Positions 12,670 through 40,309 of a DNA stretch of 49,321 nucleotides are shown in pieces. Source of the stretch: Catajapyx aquilonaris (Eukaryota); the NCBI GenBank assembly GCA_000934665.2, contig JYFJ02002898.1, positions 1-49,321 of the forward strand, written 5' to 3'. The notes under the pieces were generated by a model that worked only from the letters and a program-made list of their open reading frames with translations, was not told the origin of the DNA and did no database searches. The translations under genes were made by a program, and so were the position numbers. Numbering within the stretch: position 1 is the stretch's first letter; every line of letters begins with the position of its first letter.

Positions 12670-13020
12670 TCTCCCAGCTGGGTACCTTCATTCATCTTTC
12701 GATTTCTCAACGGCATGCCTGGTCTAGCAAATATTCTTAAATCAATGTGTCTCATAGTAGTGGAATATAATATTTCGCTATGCTTGTTTGTTAAAAATAA
12801 TGAGTTGGACACAGCAAGGAGACTCTTTGGATTGTGCCGAGGTATTTACAGCTTGTTGATTAACCAACTAGTTTTATAAGCGCTTTAATTATTAAAAAGG
12901 AACTTTCTGAGTGAGTACTCGTGGATGACTGTTAATGTCATGGCAGGAAATTGTGATCGTAATTATTGATGAATAAGGGTTCTCATGATGTTAGTGTCCG
13001 ACCTCACGTTGCGTTGTTCC
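12670..13020 (+). repeat. Local duplicated block, paralogs at about 21010-21330 and 32350-32600
   Basis: Shared runs CCCAGCTGGGTAC, GAGTTGG(G)ACACA.CAAG, AACTAGTTTTATA and GGCAGGAAATTGTGAT..TGTCCGACCTCACGTTG; boundaries approximate. Confidence 0.8.
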
Positions 13021-14149
13021 CATGCACGTCACTGTACGTCTTTTCAAGATGGACGACACCATCCGGGGGTGTATGAGTCGTGCATAAGCATTTCTTCAAT
13101 GGTCTGATGCAGGTCGATATGTTGGACCTGGTTGTTGCTCAAGAGCGTCCTAATTAATCATAATGTTCTGCTCTCATAGTTCCCTCCTGCCCAGTGCTGG
13201 TCCTGGCATTGGTCATGTACGGTCATTCATTCTGAGATAATACGTGTGTCAGGTGTGCAATCTTTTTCAAGCGTATAATATAATTACGTACGGTACAGTA
13301 CTTCCTCATACAAAATATTTTCACGCTGTAATAACAAGATATCGCAAACAAATGTACACTTCCAAGAGAAGTGAGCAACTGCTCGGGTAAATTCTGCCCG
13401 AAATTTCAGATTTGGCTGAATCATCATGAAAATTGCACATTTTGCGTCGTGGAGGTGGTTATCAAAATATATTTTTTAGATATGACTACAAATCTTATCT
13501 TGCCATTTGTGTATGTTGTCATGGAAGCTAAAATGGGTCTAAATTATGCTTTTGATTACAACTTCGTCATCCTCGGGTTTTCATTACGCTGTGATACGAT
13601 GAGAGCAAGTCTTTTTATGGCAATTCCAGCTCTTTCACACTCTATCATTACCTGATTGTGTGTGTTATCCACCGTAATTTCTTCATCATTTGACATGGGA
13701 AATTATCAATTAAAAAGAGCAATTCAGGGGCATATTCAATATTAACTTACGCCATGGAGTGGGTTTTTTTTTCTGTGAACACACTCAGAAGAAGTCTCCT
13801 CCTCGTCCTTCTGGTGTATCTGTATTCTGTACGCGGTACTATGTGTTTCTGGTCGGAGCTCCACTCGATGAGTGTTTTCCCTCACGTATGCATTTTCAGC
13901 ACGGTAAAGGGTAAACAGGTGTAGTGTTTTGGAAAATTTTGCTCTCTAGGGGTTCTCCATGAAGATCCTTAATCTGCAAGAATTTGAACAACAGTGATTG
14001 CCGATTACAGCAAATAAAGTTTTAATGGGGTATATTTTATTATCAGAGTATGGCAAACAATTAGCAACAGTGCAACACTGACCATGAATATCATTATTTG
14101 TGCGTGTTAAACTAATATTGTACGTTAAGAATACATAGCAAAGCATGAC

Positions 14150-16150
14150 TTCAAATATATCAAAGCCTATGATGCCAAGATATTCACACTTTCCCTGCGT
14201 CATTAAATAGCGTCTATTTTTCTGTAGAATAGCCACAACTACGTCATCCTTTTCTTTTAGAATACGTAATGCAAAATCTAGGATTCGCCCTAACCTGAGC
14301 TGAAAATACATCCGAACCCCCATCGTACAGAAAATGTATCAGACAATATTCCTTACCCAAGAACTTTCAAAACAACTCAGCTTCCATTTTTTTAAATGCG
14401 AACCAGAGCATTCTTCTTCCAGTGAATCGGCACATAAGTGACAGACAGACAATTCAGAAAAAAGAGTGAGAACATCATTCCAGCATATCCGGACGTATAT
14501 GCAAGTGACAAAAAATGTCCGTAATTACCATGTAATGGGAATATACTGTTGTTAATTACAATATAAATCTGATGTGAGAAGTGTGTTAGGTGTGTTTCAT
14601 AGCTGTGATAGTGGGCTACAGCAATATTATTTTTAATTTTTATTGTATTTGATCCGAACCGATGCGAACGTTACCCGTGGTTACTCAGCTTATACCTCGG
14701 CGAGGTTCAACGGCGAACCCTTCGCATTGGGTTGTAATTTTATTCCAAACCTATGGATAAATAAATTTATCTGCCAAAGTTTTTGGTGGTTCGTTTGGCC
14801 AATAATCTACCGACAAAAGGGGTGAAATTAAATCCAGATTGAGTATTTTTTTTAACAGTGAATGCATAATGTATACTTGTCACTCCAAGGACCTGACCAC
14901 TCGGATTCCCCAAAAGGATTTCTCAGACGTAATAAACAGACTTCTCCCGATTGCCTAGGATCCCTCAACTTGACTTTCTTGATAGCAGTCACGCTGTATG
15001 TATGATTTCCAAGTAACCCAAAATACTCTGTCATATCGCTGTAATATAGACACGTGACTTACATTTTCGGTTAGGTTTGACCGCTTAAAAAAATACGATA
15101 ATTGAATAATATGAGTCATACGTCTTAAGGAGCAGTCTAAAAATGAACCGCTCTCGTACATTTTTAACAGCCAGTCTATTGAAAGTCTGCATCCGCAAGA
15201 TTCGGTTATTCCTCCTGTAAAGTCTTGAAGTGCTTCGTTAGTAAATCCTCCGTCTATCGCTTCATAGCATCCATGAAGTCTGGGAAAATAACAGTTTGTA
15301 GGTTTTTGCTTGTAGGTCTTTCGGATATCTCAATTATTATGCTGTGTATTATACTTTGCAATGGATTTCTCCAATAAGGGACTCCAGAGCTCTTCGTTAG
15401 TCTGGGACTTCAAATGCACCAAATCCTCGTTCACCATCAAACGATCATCTATTACCACATCAATCCAACGTCCATTTTGCCAAAATCTGTAGCATTACGA
15501 TTGATCACATTAGTAGTGTGACAGGATGGCACAAGTCAAACAATGTGGGGGAAAAAGAAAAAAAGAAGAAGGGATAACACCTCGTCCGGCAATGTTCTCT
15601 GGCAACGAGGCGAAAAGAAAAACTTGTGGGGAGTAGATGGACATCAGAAAACAACACGACGCCATCGGTGGGTGCGTCCGGCAATGTTCTCTGACAACGC
15701 ACACTACAGATCACCAACACGTAAAGACACAATTACATTTCCACCACGGGTGTGGTTTTGTAGGTGGGTCGTTTCACTATCTCACGTGTAGAGGAGTTCA
15801 AATGGGTGAGGGTGGTTCCTCGTCATCATCCGATGAGCTGACCTCGACGACCGTAGGTTGTGGAGGTGGTGCGGAGTGACTCCGACGAGTGGTGTTATCA
15901 ATACGTAGAGGTATATGACTCCGAAAGACAGTACTGTCACAGTAGCATTGCATTCCGGACGTGCTACTCATCGGCCGTGACGTTGTACTAGTAGTCACAC
16001 ATTATTTTCGTGCACGACCCGATGTAATGCAATGTATTATATTTGAAAAGTGGTGTTTTCTTACCGAAAGTGAAATATTCCGGCATAATCGTCAGAGAAA
16101 CTCTGATCTGTGGGCACAACTTGGAAAAAGCGACGTATTTTGAGAGTTAA
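14150..16150 (-). pseudogene. Calpain (CysPc plus domain III) pseudogene
   Basis: Minus-strand exons: ..FFQVVPTDQSFSDDYAGIFHFR (ends 16065); FWQNGRWIDVVIDDRL..ELWSPLLEKSIAK (15486-15355); LHGCYEAIDGGFTNEALQDFTGGITE (15279-15122); GLLGNHTYSVT..LLRLRNPFGESEWSGPWSDK (15038-14877); FSELSVCHLCADSL..KW..FESSW (about 14490-14355); NPRF../VVVAILQKNRR..IGFDIFE (about 14300-14150). A phase mismatch and frameshifts are present; the QGxLGDCW catalytic Cys motif was not found. Confidence 0.88.
15517..15941. mobile_element. Probable solo LTR inside a calpain intron
   Basis: TGTGACAG...CTGTCACA 8-bp terminal inverted repeat with TG..CA ends, flanked by a 4-bp direct repeat GTAG (15513-15516, 15942-15945); internal direct repeat CGTCCGGCAATGTTCTCTG twice. 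Confidence 0.65.
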
Positions 16151-16639
16151 AAAGGAGGACCAAGAAACAGCTCGGCTCCTGATGGCCGATTTAGGTTTTT
16201 GGCCACACTAATTCGTGCGTAAGAAATTCAACGAGGTTACTCCGAGCTCTCTGCTACGCCGGGAAGTTCGAAATATTTACTATCCAGTATGTATTGTACG
16301 TATACTGGATGGTAAATTCACTGGTCGGGATTGGTGATTAATAAATGCATTTGTACTCCTTTTGCGTAAACTTCCAACTCTCTCTAAATTGATGATTTGC
16401 AGTCAGCTGAAATAAATATTGGAAACAACTTTTCTCATAGACTCAAGTCAAATATTTTCCAGCAGCAAAAATAAGTTGAACACTCAATGTTCAGGAGTAT
16501 CCAATGGAAGTCTTATAATATTGCTAAGTTCAGGGAAGTTAAAGTGATTATCTGTATATACACCTAAATGCCAATTTATACTTATTAAGAGAAAACTCTT
16601 AAGGTCTCTTTTTGGTATTGTGCAACTGTTAGCTCTTAA

Positions 16640-16765
16640 TTGAGGCTGATTTCCCAGCCTAGTAATCAAGGTTGCCAGTGGTTACCTCCTCTAACTGACA
16701 GGTTTCCAAATGAATGCAGCATGGCTCCAGTATAATTATAACCCAATAATCTTTTCCGCCATATG
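16640..16765 (+). repeat. Local repeat, copies at about 22260-22372 and 28435-28592
   Basis: CCCAGCCTAGTAATCAAGGTTGCCA is identical at 16653, 22292 and 28464, with similar flanks. Confidence 0.85.
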
Positions 16766-18492
16766 TACAGTACGTACTGTACGTATACTTTCCCATATGT
16801 ATTGATGAATGCAACCCCCCTCAGCAGGGACAGGCTTTGTTCGTTCTCCACTGCTCTAGGTGCAATTTTCACAATCTTTCTGGGCAAACAAACCATCTTC
16901 ACGCCCGTCTCGAGCACAACCTAGATCAGGGAAGAGTCTAGTCAGGGTCAACTTTTGATCTATATTCTTGGTCAGACCATTTTTCCTGTTGGACGCACGT
17001 TCCACACATACCAATATCTGGGCTCAACCACTGTCCATTGCACGTATTTTACGCCATGTGATGTGACTGGAGAGTTCCTTCCGCGTAATAGTCGTGTACG
17101 TGTCTCTCTTCTGTGGTTCTGGTGCCCAAAATTGGCGGCATGGCTGTATCTGCATCAAAATTGAAATATACTTTGCTCTGTGTAGTTGTTAACCTGTTTT
17201 GAGGTGTATGACTCCAAATATTATAATCTTATACCAAAAATTAAAGATGTAAGATATAAATACATTGCATCCACATTGGAATATGAGATTAATAAGCTTA
17301 TTCTCACTATTTGTACGTATGTTCTCAAAAGCATAAATGGATCGAACTTATGCTACTGGTCAAGACTGTATCTTGTGTTTTATATTACAGAACGGTAAAG
17401 TAACTGGTCGTGATATTTTATACTGATTGCACTTGGTAACTCATCTGTTAGCCTGAACAGCAAAAACAGATGTAAACAATCGCACTATTTGGGTGAGCAA
17501 AGAAAATGATTTGGCATGGTGACTGCAAGAAATGCATATTTAAAGTGTTCACTATGATACTTTCAGAGCCTCATAAGTTGAGGGAATTAAATGTGAATAT
17601 CTGACAATGCACTTAACTAACAATATAGGTCAAATTATATTTATTACTAGCAAATGTTATAATTAACACAAAGGACCTTGTGTATAAGAAACCGTGGGAC
17701 TCAATGGTAAATTTCTTGTGAGAATATGTTCTTGGGCTATGTGGCCATCTTCTTGTTAGTGATGTAAGTCTGACACTTTTTTAAATAATAATTATTATTC
17801 TTACACCGAAACCAATGATAGTTAAATTCTTGTTTCATCAAGACGGAGCACAAAAGATGTTTGGTGACTCCCTGGAATGTCGTACAGATGCGTGGACACA
17901 TTTAGTTGCCAGGGATGTTGCACCCGGGAAACTTAGAGAAGGTAGGCAGCTGGATGCCCTTTTTCATCACCTTTGTTACTCTTGCGGCGCCCAACAGCCT
18001 CCTCGTCTATGGGTCCAGCGGGCTGTAGCCCAGACAACTTCCCTGGCCTACCCCCAAGAGAGTAAGCATGCTCGTGGTTGCCACACACAGATTTTCAGTC
18101 CTCCTTGAATGACCAAACTGGGTAACACATGACATCGCATTTTTCCTGGGTGTACAAAATTGCGAATTTTATTACTTTGTATTTTGACCTACGTAAAGTT
18201 GCCATCATTCTCTGTTTTCGTTTGATGCCTTATCAGGCACGTGTGCTAGCCTTATATTTAAAAATGAGTCAGTTACTAATATCAAATATTGATAGTTACA
18301 GTTTGACAAGTGCGGTTTTACCCCCTCACAATAAGCGTTACATTGTAGTAGCTTGCTACCACCTAACTGTCTCCCATATCATCTCCTGAGACGTCGGGTT
18401 AAATCAGATCTGATCGGATGAGGTCTGGTGGTATACCGAACTTTAATGCACGCTTTGCAATGTATAGGTTGGCTCTAACTTGCTTATCTTAG

Positions 18493-18764
18493 GACTTAGA
18501 GCCATGTCATTGATGACAGTGAAGACTGAGTAAGAAGAGGAGATAACCATAGAGGAGACGTGGATGGTGCAGGTGAAGGAAGAACCCCCTGAAGAAGAAT
18601 CCCCGGTGTTTGAAATGGTGGCTGTGAAAGTGGAGGAACTAGATGATCCTAACGAGGTGGCGGACACTCATGGAGATGAATGTGGAGCTTTTGCGGACAC
18701 AAAGGAAGAGAATGTGGAGCAGGAGACGATCAGTGACTCAGGCGAAGAGTCTTTCATGGGCCAG
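18493..18764 (+). pseudogene. Orphan acidic VKxE-rich exon with in-frame stop, resembling arthropod zinc-finger protein N-termini
   Basis: Acceptor TTATCTTAG at 18492, ATG 18504: MSLMTVKTE*EEEITIEETWMVQVKEEPPEEE..VKVEE..TKEE; donor CAG/GTGCGT after 18764. No zinc-finger exon found downstream. Confidence 0.5.
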
Positions 18765-19333
18765 GTGCGTTTCAGGGGTATTTATTAGTCGACGGTGACA
18801 GCATGTCAAATATGTCTTATATACGCGAATTTCCCAAAATCACGTGACTGTCGTGACATCCAGTCCTATCTCCACGTCAGTACTATCTCCTGATCTGGAT
18901 CTGGAAACAAAGCTGAAGACACTAAAAATCGATATTTTTCGATATATCAATCCTCATATTTACTTGGCCATAAAAGCAAGTAGCTTTGAGGTGAGCCGCT
19001 TCAACCTCTCGTCGACCGAGAGCTTGTAATGGGCGTTGTTTCTGACTACGTTGATGAGAATCCGACCATCATGTATGAGACGCCTCATCGCGTCTTCCGT
19101 TCTTGGACATACTTCCCAATGCGCCGTATTGTAGATCTATGGATGCTTCCAGTAGGCCTATGCAATCTATCTCCACCTTCAACCCTGGTTGGGGGCCCGG
19201 GAAGATGATGAGCGCTTCCGTGATGTGAGCCCTATAGCCCACTCTGGGCTGGGTGGGAGCTCTGCCAAATAACTTGGCGAAGACAACTCACCTGTCTTGA
19301 TCCCTGTAATAACGTATAATTAGAGTGTCTAAG

Positions 19334-19424
19334 GTTTTTTTTTTTTTTTAGATATACCCCGTGCTAGGTAGGCCCTCTTAGGGAAGTGGATTACCACTAT
19401 CGTGCAGGGACAGGGTAGGGATAG
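19334..19424 (-). mobile_element. Short 5'-truncated retroposed insertion (LINE/SINE 3' end)
   Basis: Poly(T) tract at the left end (poly-A on minus); 11-bp TSD GAGTGTCTAAG at 19323-19333 and 19425-19435. Confidence 0.8.
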
Positions 19425-21984
19425 GAGTGTCTAAGATATATTTACGTTGTTAATCAGTGGCATGAACGTATTAGGCAGTTATATTTCCATTCTGCTCACC
19501 TACTGCACTGGATATAGTCTAGAGTCTAGACCATCGATCTTCAGGTCAAAGCGATCAATGCTCATATGAACAGTCGCTCTTTTTACTCAGAGAAGTATTA
19601 AGATTTTTTGAGACAGTACTGTATGTCTCTATAGTACTTTGTAATATAGTGTTCCTGATAATATTAAAGAGGGTATACATCCAGGGTTGCAGATGCAAAG
19701 TGTCTTTTATTCCCCCAGTACTTTGGGGGGGGGGGGGGGGGGGAATNGGGGGGGAATTCTAGCTGGAAAACTTGCTCGTTCCTTTGGTGTAAAGCCTCCA
19801 CCGAAACTAGTACGAACTAAGTTGAATTTCTCGAATTAATTTACAATGGAATTTATGGATGTTTTGTCTTTTCTGCATAGAAGTCGAAATTTGCGCTAGG
19901 ACATTTACTACCTCACAGTCACTTCCAATGGATTAAATGCTGGCCTACATCTACATGGTCTGATTTGAGTGGAGAATTCAAGTGTCGTTTATGCATCGCT
20001 GGTGACATTAAAACCATTGATTCAGAGCTGTAGTTGTGGTGGATGGTTGTGATATAACAACAATCTGGGGGTCCACAATTATGAAACAACTTGCAATACG
20101 GAGTTCTTTGACATAATCCGGAAGAACCCTTGTGTCCTCCAAAAGGAGCAGCTTCTCACGATGGTCCGTAAGGCAATGGTCATCATACTAATGTCTTTTT
20201 TGCATATTATGCTGAGGATCACTGGTAAAACCACGTTTCGTCGGGTGATGTTTTGATATCATCAGTAGACTTTTCAAGCTCTGTAATATGCTCACTAATA
20301 TGACAGTTCTTCAATAGACGTGACAAGTCCAGGGCATCTTCTGGCCGACTGGAAAACGTTTCGCATTTCGGAAACTCCCATCGTCCCATCTGCCGTTGCC
20401 TGCCATAAGGGTCCTCCCCTTTTCCATGTCGGGCCTGCAGCCTCGTGGCTCCGACGTTCCGACTAGGCTTTGTCCAATAATTAACTATAATAATTCCCAA
20501 CAAAAAAATGAAATTCATGATAACTCACCCAATTATTTCAATATAAAAATATGAAATGATAGATGGGTCAGTCTTGATGAAACGACAAATCTTTGGAATG
20601 AAATAATCCATAATAATAATAATAATATAATCAACATAAAAGGGATTAAAAAAAAAAAATCCCACACACAAAAATACAACTTTTAATGTCTGGCGCAGAA
20701 TGCTGCAGTCTCAGGGGACTCGAAATTTACCTCTTCGACCAAAGTCACGTTTCATCGGAGAAAGTCCAGAAACTGCTAATTATAAATATGTCTTGTGATC
20801 TCATAAAACCGGGTTACTCTTGCTCTCTCATTCTAATACACGTCGGTTGTCCTGTACCAGGGCAAAATAGAATCGCCAAAGTATGAACTTCCCTCCTCTG
20901 CTTTCGCGTACCAGTTATACCCCAGTGATGTAACAACGGAGTGGATGGAGGTAGTTTAAGGTTCGGGAATACAGCTTTTACTCATTTTGTGGTGTTTCGG
21001 TTGTGCAGGTCCCAGCTGGGTACATTGGTTCATCTCTAGATATCTCAACTTTATGCTTTGCCTAGAAAATATATTCTAAAATCAAAATGTGTCTCATAGT
21101 ATTGGAATATAATATATCCCTCTTACTTGTTTGCTATTAAAATAGTGAGTTGGGACACAGCAAGTAGACGTCTGTATTGTGCAGAGGTATTTACAGCTTG
21201 TTTAACCAACTAGTTTTATAATCGCTTTAATTTAAAGGTACTCATTGGTGATTGTTAATGTCACGGCAGGAAATTGTGATTGCAGTTGATGCATAAGGAT
21301 TCTCATGATGTCACTGTCCGACCTCACGTTGGTGACTCACTACTCATTATTGCTCTTATCATAGTCGCAAACGGTGTTCAAAGAGGAGTGAGCAACTTCT
21401 TGGGTAAAACCTGCCCAAAATAATAAATTGCAGACATCGCTGAATGAGCATGAAAATGTCACATTTTGCATCGTGGGGGTGGTTATTAAGTTCTTTTTGA
21501 GATATGACTACAAATCTTATATCAACAATTACCACTATTAACTTGTGGAACTTGTTTTGTTTCTTGTATTGCCACGGGCCTTGTTGGACAAGCACTATTT
21601 GAGCACAAGCCTATGGTTCGAGTGTTGGTTGTTCCCAGTCACGTACGTATAATATGAAGTGCAACCTTTAAAATTTACGTTTTCTGGTAATTATGCACGA
21701 AGATGATACACTCCAGCTATGGCGTATTGTGATGTTTACCTCTGAAATGGGTGAGCTAAACGTCTCAATTCTAGCTTTCACTTTTCATTTCATGTTATTA
21801 TGCCATTTTTATACCAAAGAAACGTTATTACCCAATATTAGCCTAATGTTACAAGTAGAGTCAGGCCACTGCCCTTGTTCCAGCATTGAAAGTCGAATAC
21901 CTCAGTGACCTCTCACGTACAGTTAATGTCCTGTACATTGTAAAGTGCAGTGGAAAAAACACAATAATATACTTTTAGGGTATG

Positions 21985-22205
21985 TCATCTCCAGCACGAT
22001 TCTGGAGCGTCACTTGTGCTCCAAAGTATAGTACAGCGTTGAAATCAAGCTGTCGTACCTCCCTACCTCGCCCGTCTCCCTGGAGAGCTGTTTCAAGATG
22101 GCCACTTCGTCCTGCTGTTTGATCACAGGGAACGACTCTTCTCATGATATGTCAGGTGCATCATGTTGAGGCACCAGACCTCCGGAGAAATCACATGCTG
22201 TAGCG
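21985..22205. repeat. About 220-bp duplicated segment, second copy about 24400-24597
   Basis: Shared GGAGCGTCACTTGTGCTCC, CCTCCCTACCTCGCCCGT, CCCTGGAGAGCTGTTTCAAGATGGC and GAGGCACCAGACCTCCGGAGAAATCACATGCTGTAGC; minus strand looks like decayed coding sequence of unknown identity. Confidence 0.85.
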
Positions 22206-22728
22206 TGGCTTATATGACATATGTGGCGTATATGACCTAACGGGAAGTGTGCCTTCTACCGTCTTAAGAATCTCGTGATTGTGGCTGATAACCCAGCCTA
22301 GTAATCAAGGTTGCCACTGGTTACTTCCGCTAACTTACAGGTTTCCAGTACTTATTACTACACTCCAATCCAGTGGTAATGAGGTGTACACTTCAAAGAG
22401 GAGGGAGAAACGACTCGGGTTAAATTTGCCCAAAAAATGCAGACATTGCTGTATCTGCATAAAAATTGGAATAAATTTTGCTTTGTGGAGGTTATTACCA
22501 TTTTGTGAATCGCCTGTTTTTCATTTCACTTGATGGCATATTGACCAATGATCCTCATGTCTTCAGTGTAGGACTTCGGCATCCTGGCTCCTTCCCACAC
22601 CCATTGTATTGTGGTATACGCCGCTTGACGGTCTTGATCAGCCTTCACGCTTCTTTCTTCACCAGCAGACGTTGCTGATGTAAGTCGGACATTTTTAAAA
22701 TAATAATATGGTTTTTATGACAAAACCA

Positions 22729-23199
22729 TCGCCCAAGGAGAGGGTCAGCACCGTCTTTCCAGAGGGACGAATGGGACGTACACCCGAGCATAAAGATGGA
22801 GAGGGCAAGCCTTCACCTTCGGCAGGCTGCTCTGCCAGTCTCAGCTATTACGGTATCAAATATACTGACATAAATACACGAACACACTACTGAAGCAGCT
22901 AACTCGGTCCAAAAAGAGTTCATTAATTTGAGTCGGATAAAGAAAGGTCAAAAAAGGGCCTGCCGTCTCCATCTTTATGCTCGTGGGGGTACATCAGCAG
23001 CACGGAGTGTGGTCCATGGCGCCCGCTTCAACGGAGGTCGTAAAGACATTGGTATGGCTTCCCATACTGTCCAAGACACAGTGGAGGATACAGCCCCACT
23101 ATCAAGGAGAGCGATCCTTGGCTGGTCGTAAATGGAGACAGGTATGGTGGCGGCAGCAATCGTAGAGGTGTCGGAATCCATAGTGTGGGATGAAGTCAT
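22729..23199 (-). pseudogene. Retropepsin-type aspartic protease of the LTR element, interrupted by a MITE and truncated
   Basis: IPVSIYDQPRIALLDSGAVSSTVS..TTLRAADV; removing the MITE and one TA continues RPIRPSGKTVLTLSLGDG, the expected flap/strand pattern. Confidence 0.75.
22781..22989. mobile_element. MITE, TA-flanked (Tc1/mariner-type), copy 1
   Basis: About 30-bp TIRs CACCCG(CG)AGCATAAAGATGGAGA.GGCA / TGCCGTCTCCATCTTTATGCTCG.GGGGG with TA on both sides; near-identical copy at 30822-31032 in unrelated flanks. Confidence 0.9.
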
Positions 23200-23240
23200 C
23201 CTTCAGGATGCCCGCACTTCTGCTCGTACCTCTGCTCGTA

Positions 23241-23534
23241 CTACCCGCAGGCACTGCAGAGAAATGGAGCCAGGGAAGACGCTGACAACGACGGTTGAGA
23301 TGTTTTTGATGGATCAGAAGAAGACGTGGACTTGGGTTTCCTCTTGCTCTTTTGTATCCCGTCCTTCCACATGGCCTGAGGTCCATCGACCTCGAGGCGA
23401 CTAAAGTACAGTCCGCAGGCTTTACAGACTGTTTCGCCTTTTTCGTTGCGTCGCCACTGGCTGGTGGTTGCCATACCGCAGTTGGAGCAGCAGAGTCGCG
23501 GGGGTCGCGAAGGCTTCACCAAGGGTTGGTCCAT
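23241..23534 (-). CDS. GATA-type zinc finger ORF (97 aa) inside LTR element
   Basis: CSNC-GMATTSQWRRNEKGETV-CKACGLY is C-X2-C-X17-C-X2-C with WRR and GLY, followed by a basic tail PQAMWKDGIQKSKRKPK matching the GATA C-terminal finger plus basic domain. Expression unknown. Confidence 0.8.
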   Translation of the reverse strand: MDQPLVKPSRPPRLCCSNCGMATTSQWRRNEKGETVCKACGLYFSRLEVDGPQAMWKDGIQKSKRKPKSTSSSDPSKTSQPSLSASSLAPFLCSACG

Positions 23535-23550
23535 CCCACTTCTGACACCA
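23533..23550 (-). other. Primer-binding site complementary to tRNA-Leu 3' end
   Basis: Plus strand ATCCCACTTCTGACACCA is a tRNA-Leu 3' terminus including CCA, 5 nt from the LTR end. Confidence 0.85.
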
Positions 23551-25199
23551 TTTTATGTCACCAAATCAGGTAGGGACATAAAATACTGTGGGCTCAGCAA
23601 TCTATGCCTCTTTAATGTGCTGCAGAGTAATGATACATACAGTATGGGTAGGCGTATTTGGAAGGTGGGAGAGAGTAGGAGTATCGTCCAGTTCCCCGGG
23701 ATATTCTCCCGGGAAAATGGCCTGGAGTAGTCAGCGAGGTTGGCTTATATAGGATATAGGATGCGATACATTGTGGGAAGTTCTGGAGGGTTCAGAGGGT
23801 GACGTATTTACAATCGAGACAAGAAAGAATGACGATGGATGATGCAATGATGTGGCTTATGTACATATGAAAAATTCAAAGGTCACACCCGTGTGAGAAA
23901 TCGAAGTGGACGTCATTTTAGGCTGAGGTTATGATTACAGTAGATGAGGAGGATGAATGCAATAATAATACTACTTCCTGACACTTGGTGGTTTGCAAGT
24001 CGTTTTTTTCTTACAATCATAGTGAAATTTCATGATCGACCTTTGGCATATTGAGTTGGCCTAGAACGTACGATGCTGCTCTACATACGACTGGAATTAT
24101 TGTTACACATTCGAGTCGTGCACCGGTCTCTCTTCATTGCGTCTGATGTATGCCCACCTGAAGATACCTGGTTGGACCTGGTTGTTACTCAGAAGCGACC
24201 TAATCTGAAAGGACCATCATGTGATCTGAGTTGTCGCGTCATTTAGCTTCTTATTAGCATTCTAATATGCAACTCTGGATAATAATAATCAAGGTGGGGA
24301 AAAAAGGCGTTATGTAACATAATTACAAGATGTGAAAGAAAATTACACGGAGTATATTTTTGAAAGTTCGTCGCTGGTTTCCACACCTCTGCGGACATGA
24401 TCTCCAGCAAGATTCCGGAGCGTCACTTGTGCTCCGAAGTATAATACAGCGTTGAAATCGAGTGGTCGTTCCTCCCTACCTCGCCCGTTTCCCTGGAGAG
24501 CTGTTTCAAGATGGCGACTTCGTCCTGCTGTTTGATCCTATGGAAAGGTGCATTAGGATGAGGCACCAGACCTCCGGAGAAATCACATGCTGTAGCACGG
24601 CTTTAGTAGTACATTGATTGTGACAGATAAATTTATACTTTTAAAACCATGTGAATAAGCATGTTGCCTGCACTGAATCAGCTGAAGAATCATACTGGTG
24701 ACTTGACATGCTGAATCTGAATTTGCTCCAGGAGATTCTTAGAGACCAAGATGTCGTTGGGGCTTCAAGTGACTCAGTTTTGAGTGTTTTAACCTGTGAT
24801 AACATTTGGTGTTTTAAATTGGTAGATGTGTATTGACTGATTGACATATAATTACATACATACATCACGGCATAATCCCATAACTGGGATAACCAGCGAC
24901 GACTAGTTTCTGCCTAGCCGTCTCGTATGACCATTACAATGAATGAATGAATGAATGACATATAAGCACATGAATTCACATCCGGAACAATGATAAGTCG
25001 GTCTTGAGTAAATACGGGATGATTTGTAATGGTTGACAATCTGAGGCAAACAGCAACATGCGATGCTTTATAATAGACTTGCCCAAGTAACTTTCGTACG
25101 AACATAATAACCAGCACTCCAGCAAGGTGATAGTAATTTTAATTGCTGGCGTCATGTTGTGTCATCAAAAATCCATCCTTCAGCGCTGGTTATTTGCAT

Positions 25200-26254
25200 G
25201 ATATTTTGTTCCATATGTGACACTACTTTTAATATTGATTTTGCGTCTTGGGAACCACCCGTTCTTGGTTGATGGTGCTTCGAAAGCAGGCCGAGTCTTT
25301 TGAAGTCATCGGTATTTTCTGTATGTCTGTGATGGTCCATTGATGGGCTTATATGACATATTATTAGTTTCCAGAAAGAAGGACACAAAATCGTCATAAG
25401 CAGTCTTCATAACACGTCCTCACAGTGTTGCAAATACTGGTGTTTGTCCTTGAACATGTGCAATCTGGAAGAGAAGATTAGAATATTGTCGATGGATGTC
25501 GGCTGTCGACTACAAGCAGTACGCAGTAGGACATTGACAAAAAGTCGCTTGGTCAATAATCCCAGAAAAACAAGCAATGGGAAAATTGTTAGAAAAGCCT
25601 ATTGGAAGAAATATTTCAGGAGAGGTCCTCATTACGTAGATAACAAAATGCTTATTATATTTTTAGACATAATGGTCTAACTCGTCCTCTCACGAGCTCG
25701 GAATAGTGGTGACATATGTGAAGTTGGCGTTGGCTTTGACTTGGTCGTCTTTTGGTCATTAATATCTTTCGGTCAATGTGTCCGGCATTTTATTCCATAA
25801 TTGGCTTAATTCTTAACTCTGGCCCCTTTGTTTCGTGGACCTTTTTCTGTTTTGGTTTACGTCGGAGAACAGATCTGCCTTTGCAAAAAGATGCAGGTTA
25901 TTGGTAAATAAACTAAATATTGTACAAGTCAAAACAATAATTACAGTACCACGACGTGTTAAAATTATATTCATCATGCAACTGGCCTTTGCGCACTTTA
26001 TGTTTACAGTGATTTCTTAATATAAAAATGTTAACACCTATATTCTTCGGTAGGCCATGACAACGTGCCATCCTTCCAATATGAAATATTTTCAGCTAGT
26101 GGACATCCAATAGCTGTATTTTCTTTCCTCTCCGGCACTGCATCAAGTTCATGATCTACCTGCTTGAAAACACACATTTATAATAATCTTACGTATATGT
26201 CAAAAGCAGTCGGGATCGACGCGACGTTCAGTAGTTGGTAAGCAGGCCCTGTCG
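25200..26254 (+). repeat. Duplicated GR upstream region, paralog about 33120-34286
   Basis: Shared TGTGACACTACTTT..TCTTGGGAACCACCC, TCATCATGCAACTGG-like and ACCTGCTTGAAAACACA runs in the same order upstream of both GR copies. Confidence 0.8.
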
Positions 26255-28346: not shown

Positions 28347-28802
28347 AAACATGTACTGTGCAAAGTGCAGTGAAAAAAACCCACCAGAACTTATAGGCTG
28401 CGTATGGCTAAATGGGGTGTGAGTCTCCTACCGCCATAAGAATCTCGTGATTGTGGCTGATTACCCAGCCTAGTAATCAAGGTTGCCACTGGTTACTTCC
28501 GCTAACAGTCAGGTATCCAGTGGTTATTACTGCACTCCAATGCAGCATTGCTCCAGTATAATTATAACCCAACAATCTTATCCGCCAAATATGTTGTGGT
28601 AGAGATACGGGTAGTGGAGACCGGGACACAGTGGTCAAATCGTTCGTCAGCTGTCGACGTGTAGCAAGTTTGGCACTCATTCTTTCGGCGGATGTTGTGA
28701 TGTTTGGCATTCGCAATCCTCTAGGTTGACCAATGGTCACGATTGATGGTGTCTAGTTGACATTGGCAAGCGATTCAGAAATAGTTTTAAAATTATGTCG
28801 CA

Positions 28803-29336
28803 TTAATATGGAATGTCAAAAATTAGAGAACATGGATTGACGCCATTAGCAATAGCAACAGCAAATGAAATAGCGAAGACACCGTAATCAACACCATTAG
28901 ACTGCTGCTGCACGTCCTCGGAGATGATTGGAGGATGGTTATGAAATAAACGATCAAAGTAGTTGATCTGATCTTTCGTGAGATTATTAACCCTACTTGG
29001 GTTGGCACTGTCATAAACATGAATGGCACACATGTCATGAAAAGTGCATATCCAGTGACTGTTGATGCCCTGCCAGGCAGGATCTGGATATGCGGGAGAG
29101 CTGATCCGAGTTATGTAATTGAGCAGGTCCCAATCATAAATGAACAAAACATTCTGCATCCTGTAAGGTATTTGAGCTTCCAGGGTGGCATGGAAGGTGG
29201 TGATGTGGTCATCTGACAGGCACACGTTGGAGGTGACCTCACTCAGAGATGATCCTGACAAAGTGTGCATCACTGCCATATTTAGAAATGAGCAAGCAAA
29301 AGAAAGCAAGAAACCCCAACAGCAAACCCGAGGCAC
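28803..29336 (-). pseudogene. Ulp1/C48-like cysteine protease fragment, probably transposon-borne, catalytic Cys replaced by Tyr
   Basis: LSDDHI..HWIC..VYDS..VQQQSNGVDYGVFAISFA matches the H-D-Q-C order of Ulp1 proteases with DYG in place of DCG; intronless; interrupts the local host repeat (about 28593-29640). Confidence 0.75.
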
Positions 29337-30559
29337 CCTTGGAGAGAATAAGCGATGAGTTTAAGGAGGGTGACCTCAATCGACCCCAAGATACGCCTGC
29401 ACCTTGTCTTTCTGAGCACTGACCAAGGAGTTATGGACCGTGCGGTCTGATCGCACGCCCAGCTGGAGACTTACTGTTGGTACTGGGTTATTATTTTGAA
29501 CTGTTTGGTGATTTCTGTCGAATCCTGTTTGCCCGATCAACCGGTCGCTGTTCGCAGTCCTGCTCAGTTGTTCACGCTTCTATAGGGGGTTGCTAGTGAG
29601 GTGGGACAAACATATGTACGAACTTTGAGCTCTATGTATATAAGGGTTATATTTATTATTAGCAAATTATAATGAACACAAAAGATCTTGTCTATATACT
29701 CTATATGACAAACAGTGGAATCAATGGTAAATTTTTTGTGAGAGTATGTACTTGTGATTTCGGAGTGAGAATTTTTCATTTCCATTGATTACATACGTAC
29801 GTATTTACCAACGCTGCTCATCCTCACCGTATGTATTCGGTATTGTCTTTTATTGTGATCGGAAATGGCGGTAAAGTCGCAGTCAGTTTTCAAAGGTGCA
29901 TGTGTAGCAGACGTTACAATGTAAGTCGGACACTTTTTTTAAACAATTGTTATTACAACAAAACCAATGATAGTTTAAATTCGTGTTTCGTCATGGCAGA
30001 TCATAAAAGTATCATATATGTGTGGTGACTCGCTGGAATGTCGTACTGTACGTACCATACACAGTTTTTCAGAGGCAGTGGAACTAATCTACATGCCAAT
30101 GCGCGTTACCAAGAGCTAATAAGGTATTAGCTCTTGGCGTTACTTATTACAAGAATATACTTAGAAATACATGCAGAATACATACATGAAAGAGTTATAG
30201 AAAATTCGCACCTTGGTCGGTTGTTATATTTTTAAAATGAAATTGGTTAATTTGGGTGTTCCAGACGTCAATATGTGGCGCTCATAAATCGAAATGGACC
30301 TCATTTTAGGCTGAGGTCAGCTGAGGTTATGATTAGAGTAGATGAGGAGGATGAATGCAATAATACTACTGAAAGTGTAATATTCGTGACACTCTGTGGT
30401 GTGCTGTGCGATTTTCTCTATTGAGATTTATCGACCTTTGGCAAATCGAGTTGGTCTGGAACTTGCGTCTCTGGTGCTACGATTTCCTTCCTTCATTCGT
30501 AATGTATTGAATCGCTTGGAGTTCAGATCCGCCACGGGATCGCTTGTAATTCTTCTGCT

Positions 30560-31561
30560 TCCGGCTAGTCTGTCCTTACCACCGTATGTGGCAGAAGGAT
30601 TATGTATGAATTGTCACTGTGTTAATGTGTGGGAAATGACTCTGTGTTCCTTGATCTTTGCACGCCAGTCTTTGCTGTCCACTGCTGCTTTCTTTCTTTT
30701 TCCACGCCCATCCAAAGGAGACAAATTGACATCCTTAGCTTTTACATCCAATAATTGCACTCTGTTTCTGCTTATGACGTAAGTGTTGCACATTGTCGCA
30801 AGACATACACGTGCCTATGTACACCCGCGAGCATAAAGATGGAGACGGCAGCCCCTCACCTTCGGCAGGCTGCTCGGCCAATTTCAGCAATTGCTGTATC
30901 AAATATACTGTCATAAATACACGAACACACGCTTGAAGCAGCTAACTAAGTCCAAAAATAGTTCATTAATTTGAGCCGGATAAAGAAAGGTCAAAAAAGG
31001 GCCTGCCGTCTCCATCTTTATGCTCGCGGGGGTACCTTCAGGCAGAGGAATGTGATATCCAAATGGTGTTTTCCATTGTCCTTTAGGTTCCATGGAGACG
31101 ACGATTATGGGAAATGCTATATTCGTGTCTGGAGCTACACCTGCTGCGCACGGAACCCTTCTATTGCATAGAAGTCATTGAATTGCTCCTCTTAAGTAAG
31201 CCATCGTTAGTGTACATCAATCAAAAGGGTTACTTGCGAGCTATCTGGATAATTATTCTGGAATAATAATGATATGCAGCAATGAGCATTGATTATTATA
31301 CGTGACATGCTTTTCTTTGCCCTAATAGGCCTACCAGCACATCTCTTTTGGTGGACTCTTTCCCGGATTGGCTTTTCCTGCAGTAGTGGTATATGCTTGA
31401 CCTGTATTCCTCAGCAGCTTATCCTTATTTCTGTCCCATTCCGCCGGCCTTGCTATTTTTGTAGGCAAGTGTCGGTAGGTAAGTCCGACATGTCTAACTT
31501 CCAGTTGGTTCAACTTGATACTGGCACTTGCCTTGTTTTGGCATGCACAAAAGTGGGACAT
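30560..31561 (-). mobile_element. Decayed DNA-transposase N-terminal region (Sola-like), interrupted by a MITE
   Basis: Motifs in order: KLLRNTGQAYTTTAGK; FGYHIPLPEG/[MITE]/T*ARVCLATMCNTYVISRNRV; SPLDGRGKR..KIKEH. Superfamily assigned from recalled motif pattern only. Confidence 0.5.
30822..31032. mobile_element. MITE, TA-flanked (Tc1/mariner-type), copy 2
   Basis: 30-bp TIR CACCCGCGAGCATAAAGATGGAGACGGCAG with one mismatch; TA at 30820-30821 and 31033-31034. Confidence 0.9.
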
Positions 31562-34286
31562 AATTATATCAAAGGGTATAGAGTGATATTGTAATTATTT
31601 ACCTTCTTCATAATTTTGTAAGCACGTATGCTGGTGTCATAATGCAAAATCATTTGTAGTGCTGTCTGCCCCGCCGAATTATGTTATTATAATCAACTGG
31701 GCTGTTGGAGTCGTACCAAACCTTTTCCGTGTCTCCTGCTGTCCTTCTGGATTTAATCCCGGAATTTTACCTCGGTTATTGTTGAACACCCTGCGTAGTG
31801 ATGATGACCATATTCCTGACGTTGGCGGTTATGATTCACACAACTATGGTTCTTTGGTTATGTCTCGATTTCTCACATGAATTCTTGATTCAGAAGCTAT
31901 TCGAAAATCGGTGTGCTTCAGAGAAGGGGAGGATCCATTTTTCTTCAAAAATTACGAGATATCGTCGTCATATAACTACTTTGATCAAATTCACTGTTCT
32001 CTCTTGGAGGTTATGACAGTAATAATGAGGCAGTGTTACACTCACTGCTGACTTATGACTCGTTCATATAAATGCTTTTAAATCAGGCTTTCCTGACTCA
32101 CCCGGCATGCTGAAAAGATTATTAGGCAAGTATTTAAAAAAGGATTTGACTTGCACTTATTTGGTTTATTCCCAAGTACAAATTGATAAAAACAATACGT
32201 CATGGGATACCTTCGCGAGCATTGTTTTCAGTCCATAAAAATATAAACCCACAAATGTAGGCTATATGACGAATCATGCCCTTCACTCGACGCATGTCAC
32301 AATATAATTTATTAAACCCTCTGTTATGTGTTATGTGTATTTGAGGTACATGGTAGTGGAATCTTAATATTTCGCTCTTGTTTGTTGTTAAAATAATGAG
32401 TTGGACACATCAAGGCGACGCGACGCCTGGGTTGTCAATTACCCAACAAGTTTATTAATCGCTTTAATTTAAAGGAACTTTCTGAGTGAGGAGTACTCAT
32501 CGATGACTTTTAAGGTCACGGCAGGGAATATTGTGATCGCAATTGATGCATAAGGATTCTTATGATGATACTGTCCGAACTCAGGTTGGTTCCATGCGCG
32601 TCATTGTACGCCTTGCCAGTGGTCAATGCCACGACAGTTCAAATTTTGCAAATTTTTCAGATTTCCTTGGGAAATTATAGGCGTCTTTCCCGTAATTTCT
32701 TGTCTTTGGTTTTCCACAATATGAATTTTACTGGAAGCCTCGTAGAAACTAATGCATTTCATTTCAATTAAGAGGCCTGTTTCTATTCGAGCCTTTTGTC
32801 GTACTAACAAGTAAGTACACAGTAAGTTGACAGTTGTTCATTAGATCCTCCCGGGCGTGATTTTTATGAACAAAATAAGCTGTAATATGAATATGAATAA
32901 ATCATAAAGGCGAACATATTAAGTATAAATAAAATATAAATTATAAAGTGAATGATGGCTCTTACATTATTTGGCGTTTTAATTTATTTTCTCTTCGCTT
33001 ACGTAATTTCATAGAAGGAGAATGTTTGGGTTGTCACTGCAGACAATTTAACAGGATAAAGCAACATACCCTGTAGCCGTGACTCCAGTGTAGCGTCATC
33101 AGGACGCGATTGTCCAGTACTGATATTTTATTCCACGTGTGACACTACTTTCATTTTGATTTTGCATCTTGGGAACCACCCATCATTGCTTCATGGTGCT
33201 TCGAAAGGAGGCGAGTCTTTCGAAGTCGTCTTTATTTTCCGTATGTCTGTGGTGGTCCATTGATGGGCGAACTGAACGTCTCTTGTTTCCAGAAATAAGG
33301 ACAAAAATTGCCGCAAGGGGCAATGAGAATCAGGTTTTGGTAAAAATGAGAGAGCGGGTCATAAAATGTGCGTCGGCATATTAGTCAAGTAGTACTGGAA
33401 TGTTTTGTATATAATAACTTTCTGCACATTGAAATCCCAAAGATGAATATGTTTATTAAGCAATATGAGATATTCCCCAAATCGTCGTAGAGTTTTAATT
33501 TTTCTGATACTCAAGCACGTTAGACTACTGAAAGAAATATTACAAAAGAATTCCTCCTTACGTAGATGACATAATGCTTATCTTTCCACCCAGTTTTTGA
33601 AAGTCGTATTTTGGTCATTATTTCTGGGTGAATCTAGCTGAACCACCATGTTCCTTCCAACACTGGCCATAATATATATTACAAGTGGATCATACAATAA
33701 TATTGAATATGTTCCATACAATGAGACTCCTGTTAGATGTAATTTAAATCCTGAGTTTCACATACATGTCAGATTCTATACATCTTATATTGCCCAATAT
33801 TTTAATTGATTGGGCATATGTCCGCTCAAGTGCAGTCCAGCGCAATAATTTACACCTCATCGCAGAAACTGTATGGTAACTGTATGGTGGTCTGCCACCC
33901 CCCTATAACGACCAAGTAGTTGTATCACGGGGTAAATAAAATAAAAATAAAATAAAAATAATATATTAGTCAAAACAATTACAGTACCACTACTTGTTGA
34001 AATTACTCGTATGTTCGTCATGCAACTGGGCTTTAAGGACTTTGTTTGCAGTGATTTTCTAATGCCATAATATTAACGCCCATATTTTTCGGCAGGGCTT
34101 GACATTATTTCAATATGCAATTTTTCAGCCAATGGACATCTGCCAAAAACACTATTTTTTCCTCTCAGGCACTGTAATGCATCAAGCTCATGACATACCT
34201 GCTTGAAAACACATGCATTAATAACAAGCTTATATGTCAAAAGCAGGCTGGATCGACGTTAAATAGTTGGTAAACAGGCCCTGACG

Positions 34287-39879: not shown

Positions 39880-40309
39880 GTCTCTGCTATAATAAGCAAT
39901 GGAACCAGAGACAACAATTGGAAATATTATGACGGAAGATTTCTGGAATTGATGTGGTGGTAAACGCTTGAAACTTACCCTTCGTTGTCCTTACTCCTGC
40001 CCCTTAGGCCCGGTCTACTTGATGCAATTCGAAACTTGCAGGATCTCGATAGAAAATAATTTAGAAGTTATCCTAAGAACCCTAGTGTAAAGCAAGGTAG
40101 CTTAAAGATTACTAAAGCAGGACTAAAGTTAGAATGCGTCTCGTAGCAACCGCACAAACTGTTGATTGTCATCTGACCATTTTAACCAAAGAGTTCTGCT
40201 ATTATGAGATTATACAGGATAAATACATACTAGCAGGTTCCCCGGGTATCTCCATCTGTATATTTAAGGAAGTTTGTAAAATTTTCTCCTTAGTCAGATA
40301 TTAACGGGG

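Follow-up and report, generated by a model that had tools for sequence, protein, structure and literature searches.

The stretch of DNA analyzed here, hereafter the window (49,321 nt of Catajapyx aquilonaris contig JYFJ02002898.1), contains what appears to be an LTR retroelement with a GATA zinc finger in the position normally held by gag. The original prediction for this locus was that the element had captured a segment of a host GATA message and had thereby given rise either to a family that employs the finger for targeting or self-regulation or to a non-autonomous derivative by which a stand-alone GATA domain spreads. The question raised by the locus is whether it belongs to such a family or is the remnant of a single capture. 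The limits of the inserted block were taken from a comparison with two paralogous host repeat units (units A and C). Homology to both stops at 22728, exactly at the predicted left limit of 22729, and resumes in unit C at ~23896, which moves the right limit from the predicted 23804 to ~23887-23895. The 320 nt of unit C between its repeat blocks rep2 and rep3 are missing at the block locus. The putative LTR, primer binding site (PBS), GATA ORF, and protease-like frame are all on the minus strand and follow one another in the order given below, which runs from the putative LTR to a half protease.

22729-23895, minus strand: the inserted block, with bounds from the comparison with the two paralogous host repeat units
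23556-23887, minus strand: putative 5' LTR, 332 nt, by direct reading of the sequence
23551-23555, minus strand: 5-nt spacer TAAAA between the putative LTR end and the PBS, from the sequence
23533-23550, minus strand: PBS, 18 of 18 positions complementary to the 3' end of tRNA-Leu(CAA), including CCA
23237-23537, minus strand: host GATA-derived segment of ~300 nt, from Pfam, phmmer alignments, and the host alignment
23218-23241, minus strand: tandem 12-mer duplication (GTACGAGCAGAG / GTACGAGCAGAA) at the GATA/protease junction, from the sequence
22992-23202, minus strand: retropepsin-like N-terminal frame, from weak Pfam matches, an atlas lead, and one paralogous contig
22781-22989, no strand assigned: MITE of 209 nt with ~38-nt terminal inverted repeats, inserted in the protease part
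22729-22778, minus strand: the 50-nt piece that ends the inserted block, from the MITE to the truncation point

Four features went beyond the original prediction: a MITE lies within the protease, the block is truncated, RT and integrase are absent, and the finger is degenerate. A pair of 225-nt direct repeats (21987-22211 and 24400-24603, 83% identical) was considered as the LTRs of an enclosing element and rejected, with the PBS located ~850 nt from the nearer repeat. Rfam returned no matches for positions 20000-26000.

The PBS provides the clearest retroelement signature. It begins 5 nt past the putative LTR end, and its 18-mer (23550 to 23533) is identical to a tRNA-Leu(CAA) probe printed in a passage of PMC7997516 and is the exact complement of the final 18 nt, CCA included, of tRNA-Leu-CAA-2-1 as given in part of PMC10359600, both of these reference ends being mammalian and possibly different from the tRNA of the host. 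The predicted 18-nt tRNA-Leu PBS was thus borne out in full. ARAGORN detected no tRNA genes in the window, and a joint of 22992 to 23532 in the contigs, with 22 letters on its shorter side, was read as a MITE copy beside a tRNA-Leu-like 22-mer and given no weight. The adjoining putative LTR has ends that fit an LTR (TGTGACC at 23887 and GGTGACA at 23556), as do a TATATAAG box at 23751-23744 and an ATTAAA at 23616-23611, and its outer end lies 8 nt from the resumption of unit C homology. No second copy of 23556-23887 was found in the window or, at ≥80% likeness, in the contigs of the sample. The LTR call therefore stays putative: it derives from the position beside the PBS and from the end motifs, and the segment was never seen as a repeat. 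The putative LTR contains no WGATAR sites, which is uninformative because only ~0.6 would be expected by chance.

Immediately downstream, the first 5 nt of the GATA segment (GGGAT) overlap the PBS. The ORF extends from an ATG at 23534-23532, whose first two bases are shared with the PBS, to a TAG at 23243-23241, a total of 97 codons, and these coordinates, read from the sequence, agree with the predicted start codon over the PBS and the predicted 97-aa ORF. On the upstream side, the frame is closed by the TAA of the spacer, while the 3' limit of the segment was set at the point where a paralogous contig stops matching (23236). The segment begins with the end of the inter-finger linker, followed by the C-finger (23489-23415), a basic tail that reaches 23331, and a stretch rich in Ser. 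The finger (C-X2-C-X17-C-X2-C) matches PF00320 at E 1.8e-12 (47.1 bits, against a Pfam cut-off of 26.8), and the ORF has kept all four Cys, W-R-R, C-x-A-C-G-L-Y, and the K-R-K-P-K tail, confirming the predicted finger and basic tail. Searched exhaustively with phmmer, a set of 1.84 billion representatives yielded 3763 GATA matches at E≤0.001. Among the best 150 of these, 142 are two-finger proteins, with identities no higher than 58%. Among ten matches looked up by name, three had none, and seven are named as GATA-A, pannier, or GATA-4/5-like proteins of arthropods. The sole match of a word search among longer proteins was a tick GATA-binding factor A-like protein, likewise 58% identical. Judged by these identities, the closest relatives of the finger among the matches listed are arthropod GATA-A/pannier proteins, at ≤58%.

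The arrangement of this homology points to a message as its source. In one frame and without a break, it spans the G-M-x-x-P-L-V-K-P encoded by the first-finger exon, then the C-finger, and then the tail, with the phmmer alignments to host GATA factors beginning at residue 5-6 of the stop-to-stop frame. In doing so, the segment crosses a site at which five of 17 aligned host sequences bear an insert and at which the sequence P0098 begins. These inserts look like read-through intron, and a conserved exon boundary is placed at this linker site in passages of Gillis et al. 2008 (PMC2383905). An alignment gap of ~6 residues relative to host GATA factors is found at the same linker exon junction. 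The piece is an internal CDS fragment with no adjoining poly(A), and it lies in sense orientation between the terminal and coding parts of the element. All of this supports the predicted capture of a host GATA message between PBS and protease, with the C-finger and the tail preceded by the last part of the first-finger exon. The original prediction had also argued from the lack of an intron between finger and tail. The lack of interruption was indeed found, but the argument is weak because the best matches are arthropod pannier/GATA-A proteins, and the finger and tail exons of arthropod pannier and GATAd genes are described as fused in part of PMC2383905. The intron positions, the GGGAT microhomology, and the decay since capture are what we infer from sequences other than the host's own GATA gene.

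The protease-like frame opens 38 nt past the GATA stop and contains the codons for D-S-G-A at 23103-23092, as expected from the predicted DSG protease ~40 nt downstream, but its Pfam matches remain below the cut-offs (Asp_protease_2, E 0.069 and 14.3 bits versus 24.3; gag-asp_proteas, E 0.22). The top named ESM-atlas clusters for this piece are all retropepsin-like (scores 0.93-0.90). A longer-protein word search of a 5.8-billion-protein set gave 128 candidates, none at E≤0.01, and a comparison with PDB sequences gave none at E≤10. Only the first half of the frame survives. Compared with the GATA ORF it is shifted to the -1 frame, and a TGA at 23205-23203 closes it upstream, so that it is out of reach from the GATA frame. 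A frame at 22645-22812 was tried as the C-terminal part of the protease and rejected; 22664-22728 is common to host units A and C, and the frame has no Pfam match.

Little else of an element is present. Among 96 minus-strand frames downstream (10942-22844), Pfam found no RT, RNase H, integrase, or gag, and four of these frames match calpain exons; the 22 large ORFs of the window likewise contain no RT, integrase, or gag. None of the three frames between PBS and protease matches a gag family in Pfam: one is GATA, and the third (137 aa) matches no Pfam family. The prediction that the element has no space for a capsid therefore holds, and Pfam detected none of RT, RNase H, and integrase in the downstream frames searched. 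The order of these three domains distinguishes Gypsy, Copia, and BEL elements, and with half a protease left the predicted Gypsy type is only one candidate. The block is a stump of an LTR-type element, with one putative LTR, no RT, and no integrase. Its protease part was further interrupted by the MITE, which is flanked by TA at 22779-80 and 22990-91. A second copy at 30819-31035 is 90% identical, with 38-nt arms that are 95% complementary, and the summed contig depth of the MITE is ~34,000-56,000 compared to 23-33 in its flanks, a difference of >1000 times. An empty-site contig without the MITE joins 22777 to 22989 and matches at least 25 nt of the 22729-22778 piece. The MITE is short, with terminal inverted repeats, a TA duplication, a high copy number, and no coding capacity, as in Stowaway-like (Tc1/mariner-type) MITEs, a family name that we assume from the TA duplication. 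One run from another sample with the same species label (X5) covers just the MITE.

From these results, the block is probably the 3'-truncated and decayed remnant of one LTR-retroelement insertion, in which the leader and gag region had been replaced by ~300 nt of reverse-transcribed host GATA456-class (pannier/GATA-A-like) mRNA. In such a scenario, the GATA message would have been packaged together with the element RNA, and the reverse transcriptase would have switched templates from the element RNA, just upstream of the protease, to the GATA message, which it would have copied as far back as the point where the first-finger exon ends. Joining of the LTR-PBS strand would have followed, via the 5-nt microhomology GGGAT, the last bases of the PBS. 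As the join falls exactly at the end of the 18 tRNA-copied nt, it is suggestive of a misdirected plus-strand transfer. The chimeric copy would have integrated between rep2 and rep3 of a ~6-kb host repeat unit, and a later deletion would have taken away what remained of the protease together with RT, integrase, the 3' LTR, and ~300 nt of host DNA.

It is also conceivable, though rather unlikely, that independent events were involved, with a GATA fragment patched at the DNA level into an already dead remnant, either by break repair with cDNA or genomic filler or by LINE retroposition, and with no role for the reverse transcription of the element itself. The locus is a patchwork of repeats in which the MITE also landed, an RNase H-type ORF from another retroelement is found elsewhere in the window (41444-42109), and end joining also leaves footprints such as the 12-nt tandem duplication at the 3' junction. 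However, such patching fits poorly with a 5' junction that coincides exactly with the final bases of the 18-nt PBS, 5 nt being common to both, and with a GATA piece that replaces gag precisely between PBS and protease in the sense orientation. LINE processed pseudogenes also differ from this internal CDS fragment, which lacks poly(A), a 3' UTR, and a target-site duplication.

The state of the finger was judged from conserved columns, counted in 61 of 151 host proteins, chosen as short (≤445 aa, although not every short one was included). The ORF agrees with these factors in 28 of the 45 columns that are ≥90% conserved, and within its homologous part there are 13 departures (R9Q, R17P, G19R, T27M, L32Q, P41T, N44K, K51S, L52R, H53L, R57G, T68K, and R69S), whereas 54 of the 61 host proteins depart in ≤2 columns. 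Three of the altered residues (N44, L52, and H53) are invariant in all 61. By motif, the changes affect the N of C-N-A-C, the K-L-H after G-L-Y (K51S, L52R, H53L), and the L before W-R-R (L32Q), residues that we take to touch DNA, as in the GATA-1 finger structure. Since residues that never varied in the host factors have been lost, we read the open GATA ORF as a non-functional relic, for which canonical WGATAR binding is not expected. Alternatively, the odd residues could already have been present in the source, if this was a GATA-like paralogue that evolved fast, and they would then not represent decay. On the other side of the ledger, the ORF is open, has a good ATG, and keeps all four zinc ligands. 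The openness is weak evidence: in simulations that ignored indels, 4-29% of frames remained open after 0.1-0.3 substitutions per site, and 48 of the 4893 stop-to-stop frames of the window reach the length of the ORF.

The same observations bear upon the idea of an exapted mini-gene, in which the remnant LTR would drive a stand-alone 97-aa single-finger GATA-like protein used by the host, for instance to compete with full-length GATA factors or to act as a regulator that is specific to the lineage and evolves fast. The ATG directly behind the leader, the TATATAAG box ~200 nt upstream, and the retained Cys, W-R-R, C-x-A-C-G-L-Y, and K-R-K-P-K motifs would all suit such a gene, and lineage-specific, fast-evolving GATA-like genes do occur in arthropods (PMC9535882). 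No RNA run appears among the five runs listed as matching the window. Nevertheless, the loss of the N of C-N-A-C and of the L and H of K-L-H, the low weight of the open frame, and a word search of 56-181 aa entries that gave two candidates and no match to a short protein resembling the ORF together make it very unlikely.

If a family of GATA-bearing elements existed, further copies might be visible among assembled reads. Contigs were searched at ≥80% likeness in four runs that contain the locus, all from one sample that is possibly the source of the window; such contigs indicate presence, not absence, and copies that are <80% alike or unassembled would escape. A 1597-nt contig (run X1) begins at 22992, takes in the start of the protease, the GATA piece, the PBS, and the LTR, and continues into the host flank at a depth of 30, compared to 26.7 for a neighboring unique contig, and in the contigs of this sample the LTR, PBS, and GATA parts are single-copy at ≥80% likeness. 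The sole extra contig (445 nt) covers 22992-23236 with 92% identity (20 differences in 245 nt) and then continues for 200 nt unlike the window. Its match ends within the first copy of the 12-mer duplication, five bases from the GATA stop codon. Thus, propagation of the captured GATA piece in several element copies was not found in the contigs of this one sample at ≥80% likeness, and database protein searches found no protein in which GATA is joined to retroelement domains. It is most improbable that the locus represents a genuine LTR lineage with a GATA finger for gag, used in targeting, self-regulation, or non-autonomous spread, of which this copy is merely old and broken: the PBS, ORF, and -1 frame protease do resemble a gag-pro arrangement, copies >20% diverged would be invisible to the contig search, and decayed transposon ORFs are under-represented in protein databases, but the GATA part occurs once, the one further copy of the protease part has no GATA at that point, the protease piece occurs in none of the best 150 of the 3763 GATA matches (phmmer, E≤10), no GATA-carrying LTR family was found described in the full-text literature as judged by titles and abstracts, and a capsid-less element needs a helper family, none of which was seen in the window.

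Consequently, neither form of the predicted family, finger-using or finger-spreading, finds support: the GATA, PBS, and LTR parts are single-copy at ≥80% likeness in the contigs of the sample, the other protease copy stops matching at 23236, RT, integrase, and a second LTR are lacking, invariant residues are lost, and no GATA-retroelement protein turned up in the databases searched. What was found comes close to a one-off at this locus, with a single-copy GATA part and a firm GATA call, next to retropepsin calls that are sub-threshold. We consider it quite unlikely that the ORF is either a young, lineage-specific, LTR-promoted single-finger gene acquired by transduction or, from an old LTR lineage that carried GATA, the one copy still visible while the others are >20% diverged. 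If either were true, the altered recognition residues would confer a new DNA specificity or a role as a competitor of pannier factors.

The ORF shares with animal GATA456-class proteins (pannier, GATA-binding factor A, and GATA-4-like) the finger, W-R-R, C-x-A-C-G-L-Y, and the K-D-G-I-Q...K-R-K-P-K tail, with a best identity of 58% to insect, mite, and tick proteins. It differs from them as a single-finger, 97-aa frame with 13 departures and a ~6-residue linker gap, located within retroelement debris. The locus is probably an instance of the known capture of host fragments by LTR elements, a one-off that is now dead, and not a new working family. The transduction of oncogenes by acutely transforming retroviruses is a comparable capture of host messages. 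The locus opens no new element class and has no bearing on long-standing questions. If our reading is right, its value is modest, as a mechanistic footprint in which the junction at the tRNA-copied PBS end points to misdirected strand transfer, and as a caution for annotation, since a Pfam-positive GATA ORF would here belong to the debris of a retroelement rather than to a transcription factor gene. It would also add a neat animal case to a process for which most records come from plants and vertebrate retroviruses. Among the latter, the crocodilian CrocERV29 (KIT-ligand) and CrocERV31 (nectin3) similarly carry an intronless host message in a retroviral genome, and parts of PMC4299795 note that retroviral capture of host mRNA usually costs viral genes and leaves a replication-defective provirus. 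The crocodilian captures are described there as whole ORFs with several insertions under purifying selection, whereas the present capture is limited to ~100 codons in one copy that has lost conserved residues. In Bs1 of maize and other plant LTR retrotransposons, as described in passages of PMC13317346, host coding fragments likewise replace the element's own genes, yielding a defective element with a hybrid ORF, and read-through or template switching in reverse transcription has been proposed as the route. The Bs1, rice, and sorghum cases are, in the same passages, multi-copy elements with two LTRs that were mobilized after capture, whereas the present locus, from an animal genome, consists of one truncated copy and, unlike Bs1-type cargo, carries a transcription-factor DNA-binding finger.

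The original prediction placed an LTR retroelement with a GATA zinc finger in the Gag position at this locus. By direct reading of the sequence, all of its features were located and all lie on the minus strand. They are arranged as follows, together with the host repeat units that surround them.

16633-17826 (16.6-17.8 kb): unit A of the host repeat
22231-24067 (22.2-24.1 kb): unit B, the middle copy, which contains the element remnant (the stump)
28403-30467 (28.4-30.5 kb): unit C
23887 to 23556, minus strand: putative LTR of 332 nt, which starts TGTGACC and ends GGTGACA
23751-23744, minus strand: TATATAAG within the putative LTR
23616-23611, minus strand: ATTAAA within the putative LTR
between the putative LTR and the primer-binding site (PBS), minus strand: the five bases TAAAA
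23550-23533, minus strand: PBS 18-mer TGGTGTCAGAAGTGGGAT
ATG 23534-23532 to TAG 23243-23241, minus strand: GATA ORF of 97 codons
23241-23218, minus strand: tandemly duplicated 12-mer at the GATA/protease junction
from 23202, minus strand, -1 frame: protease-like frame with hydrophobic-x-hydrophobic ... A-L-L-D-S-G-A
22781-22989: MITE of 209 nt with ~38-nt inverted ends and TA on both sides, inside the protease part

Around the stump, a ~6-kb host unit is present as three diverged copies (71-91% identity in pieces) with the blocks rep1, rep2 and rep3 in identical order in all three, and the stump replaces the rep2-rep3 spacer of unit B. Homology of unit B to units A and C ends at 22728 and resumes at ~23896; therefore, the foreign block is 22729-23895. 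Its outer end and the proposed LTR start are 8 nt apart, while its inner end coincides with the left limit of 22729 originally assigned to the element. The rep2-rep3 interval of unit C holds 320 nt that are absent from unit B, a shortfall that fits a deletion in which the remainder of the element was lost along with some host DNA. Pfam searches found no RT, RNase H, integrase or gag in any of the 96 minus-strand frames of at least 38 aa from 10942 to 22844. Nor did any of the 22 large ORFs across the window match RT, integrase or gag, and the LTR, GATA and protease parts each occur only once in it. The whole stump is also bracketed, at 2.4 kb, by direct repeats of ~225 nt (21987-22211 and 24400-24603, 83% identical), which probably belong to some other dispersed repeat, present here twice, rather than being LTRs. 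Unit C contains a 185-aa open frame on the minus strand (28806-29360) with no Pfam match, the end of which resembles by eye what we take to be an Ulp/SENP-type cysteine protease motif.

Four minus-strand frames (13949-16207) matched Peptidase_C2 (E 1.6e-14 to 6e-05), accompanied by a weak Calpain_III match, and thus a calpain gene lies downstream of the stump on the minus strand, with the stump either upstream of this gene or in a 5' intron. Elsewhere in the window, intronless ORFs of ~350 aa at 6519-7577 (minus strand) and 34263-35306 (plus strand) matched the Pfam chemosensory receptor family 7tm_7 (E 1.3e-09 and 1.3e-08), and similar pieces occur at 26.2-27.1 kb and 43407-44168 (plus strand), so that the window appears to contain a number of gustatory-receptor-like paralogues or fragments. 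Together with the arthropod identity of the best GATA matches (below), these receptor ORFs make it likely that the host is an arthropod. A 222-aa ORF at 41444-42109 (plus strand), which matched RNase H (E 1e-05), is probably derived from another retroelement, and a 563-aa ORF at 38302-39990 (minus strand) had a weak LRR match alone (E 8e-07).

In LTR elements, the PBS usually measures 18 nt and ends immediately before the T-loop. By full-text search, TGGTGTCAGAAGTGGGAT was found to be the start of a probe against tRNA-Leu(CAA), a mammalian tRNA, in the available text of PMC7997516, and the last 18 nt of the mammalian tRNA-Leu-CAA-2-1, CCA included, are its complement in that of PMC10359600. 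No tRNA genes were found in the window. Judged by this match to mammalian tRNA-Leu(CAA) ends, we regard the predicted tRNA-Leu PBS as real, and it is the sole hallmark of an LTR element that the stump firmly displays.

The predicted GATA finger was upheld by Pfam, as the 97-codon ORF matched PF00320 at E 1.8e-12 with 47.1 bits (cut-off 26.8). Searched exhaustively with phmmer, 1.84 billion representatives yielded 3763 matches at E<=0.001. Among the best 150 of these, identity to the ORF was <=58% throughout, and 142 proteins had two fingers, three had three, two had four, and three had one. Seven of the ten matches examined by name are GATA-binding factor A, pannier or GATA-4/5-like proteins from insects, mites and a louse, the other three having no name, while a word search of longer proteins gave, as the single match among 91 candidates, a GATA-binding factor A-like protein from a tick, 58% identical to the ORF. 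In the stop-to-stop frame, the alignments start from residue 5-6 and comprise G-M-x-x-P-L-V-K-P (the first-finger exon tail), the C-finger, K-D-G-I-Q...K-R-K-P-K and a Ser-rich stretch. We consider the finger to be real and host-derived.

A cDNA origin had been argued from the missing intron between finger and tail. According to the available text of Gillis et al. 2008 (PMC2383905), the double-finger domain spans three exons whose boundaries are conserved (ZF1 of ~50 aa, ZF2, and a conserved 3' portion of ~30 aa), the second and third of which are fused in arthropod pannier and GATAd genes. Because of this fusion, the argument is unsafe for an arthropod source, and the first exon boundary is the better one. 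In our alignment of GATA proteins (A2), five of the 17 displayed host sequences (P0009, P0011, P0012, P0013 and P0175) show additional residues precisely between K-R-L and T-A-T-R-R, presumably because the gene models run into an intron, and the short genomic ORF P0098 starts at this point. The window ORF continues across it without a change of frame; it lacks about six residues there and has no insert. The GATA piece is also an internal coding fragment with no adjoining poly(A) or UTR, which speaks against an ordinary processed pseudogene made by a LINE. Overall, the piece looks like a copied mRNA.

The predicted DSG protease fared less clearly. D-S-G-A is indeed encoded at 23103-23092, but the frame matched Asp_protease_2 (E 0.069, 14.3 bits) below the cut-off of 24.3 and gag-asp_proteas at E 0.22, in both cases over profile positions 1-37 only, and the piece had no match among longer proteins (word search, 128 candidates) or PDB sequences. 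Retropepsin-type clusters filled all named top places in an ESM-atlas feature search (scores 0.93-0.90), which is a lead rather than evidence. Thus, the sequence weakly supports a protease identity. The frame is closed by a TGA (23205-23203) downstream of the GATA stop and is therefore unreachable by frameshift from the GATA frame in this copy.

A mechanism may be proposed for both junctions. As predicted, the ATG overlaps the PBS, its first two bases being common to the 18-mer and the ORF start. GATA homology starts at G-M (GGG ATG) and the PBS ends in ...GGGAT, giving five common bases, which would put the 5' join right where the tRNA-copied stretch ends. Plus-strand strong-stop DNA ending in the PBS copy may have annealed by microhomology to cDNA of a co-packaged GATA message, creating the 5' junction, while the minus strand would have changed templates just upstream of the protease, leaving element RNA for GATA mRNA and thereby creating the junction with the duplicated 12-mer. 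The 12-nt tandem duplication may be a trace left when the two parts were joined. Among LTR elements, template switching and read-through are the accepted routes of capture (available text of PMC13317346), and ERVs have taken up host mRNAs while losing their own genes (available text of PMC4299795). Patching at the DNA level could be proposed instead of retroelement capture, but we consider it unlikely.

We aligned the ORF with 61 of 151 host GATA proteins, chosen as short (<=445 aa), with some short ones left out. Forty-five columns were at least 90% conserved in the 61 proteins, and the ORF matched in 28. Four of its 17 departures fall in the PBS-encoded, non-homologous residues 1-5, and 13 in the homologous part (R9Q, R17P, G19R, T27M, L32Q, P41T, N44K, K51S, L52R, H53L, R57G, T68K and R69S), where N44, L52 and H53 are invariant in all 61 host proteins. 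Among the host proteins themselves, 54 depart in at most two columns (39 in none, 12 in one, three in two), and the remaining seven in 4 to 23. Several of the departed residues presumably contact DNA in the GATA-1 finger structure. The ORF falls within the Pfam definition of the domain but does not keep its invariant residues. The open frame, which would speak for an exapted mini-gene, is weak evidence of constraint: simulated frames were still open in 29% down to 4% of cases after 0.1-0.3 substitutions per site (indels ignored), and 48 of the 4893 stop-to-stop frames in the window have at least 103 codons. With its finger in this state, such a mini-gene is very improbable.

Four of five sequencing runs cover the stretch, all from one sample that is possibly the window's own source and none of them RNA. 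Their contigs were matched at >=80% likeness to 22230-24390, and thus show presence rather than absence, copies below 80% being invisible. A 1597-nt contig (run X1, depth 30) extends from 22992 across the protease start, GATA, PBS and LTR and reaches the host flank, and the unique contig on the other side has a depth of 26.7. In all three runs, depth across the bins from 23252 to 23689 was that of one contig or close to it, with slight rises at 23471-23689 and at 23690-23762. Of the further contigs, only one is substantial (445 nt, depth 21.9): it aligns to 22992-23236 with 20 differences, ending within the 12-mer duplication (23218-23241), and its other 200 nt are unlike the window. Since it diverges at 23236, five bases from the GATA stop codon, it represents one protease paralogue without the GATA piece at this place. 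The MITE, in turn, has a second copy at 30819-31035 (90% identical) and a summed contig depth of ~34,000-56,000 versus 23-33 in its flanks (three runs), more than 1000 times the unique flanks. A contig from the same sample joins 22777 to 22989 without it, and the insertion is therefore polymorphic or absent from a paralogue. A family of GATA-bearing elements, as originally envisaged, is thus not borne out in this sample at >=80% likeness and is very doubtful; full-text searches likewise found no described GATA-bearing LTR family among the titles and abstracts.

We therefore favor, with reasonable though far from complete confidence, the view that the feature is genuine yet ordinary, the locus being the dead, chimeric stump of a retroelement and a one-off. 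Bs1 and the captured-mRNA ERV families have several cargo-bearing copies, a feature that the stump does not share, but it resembles both types in that the locus works like a retroelement transduction.
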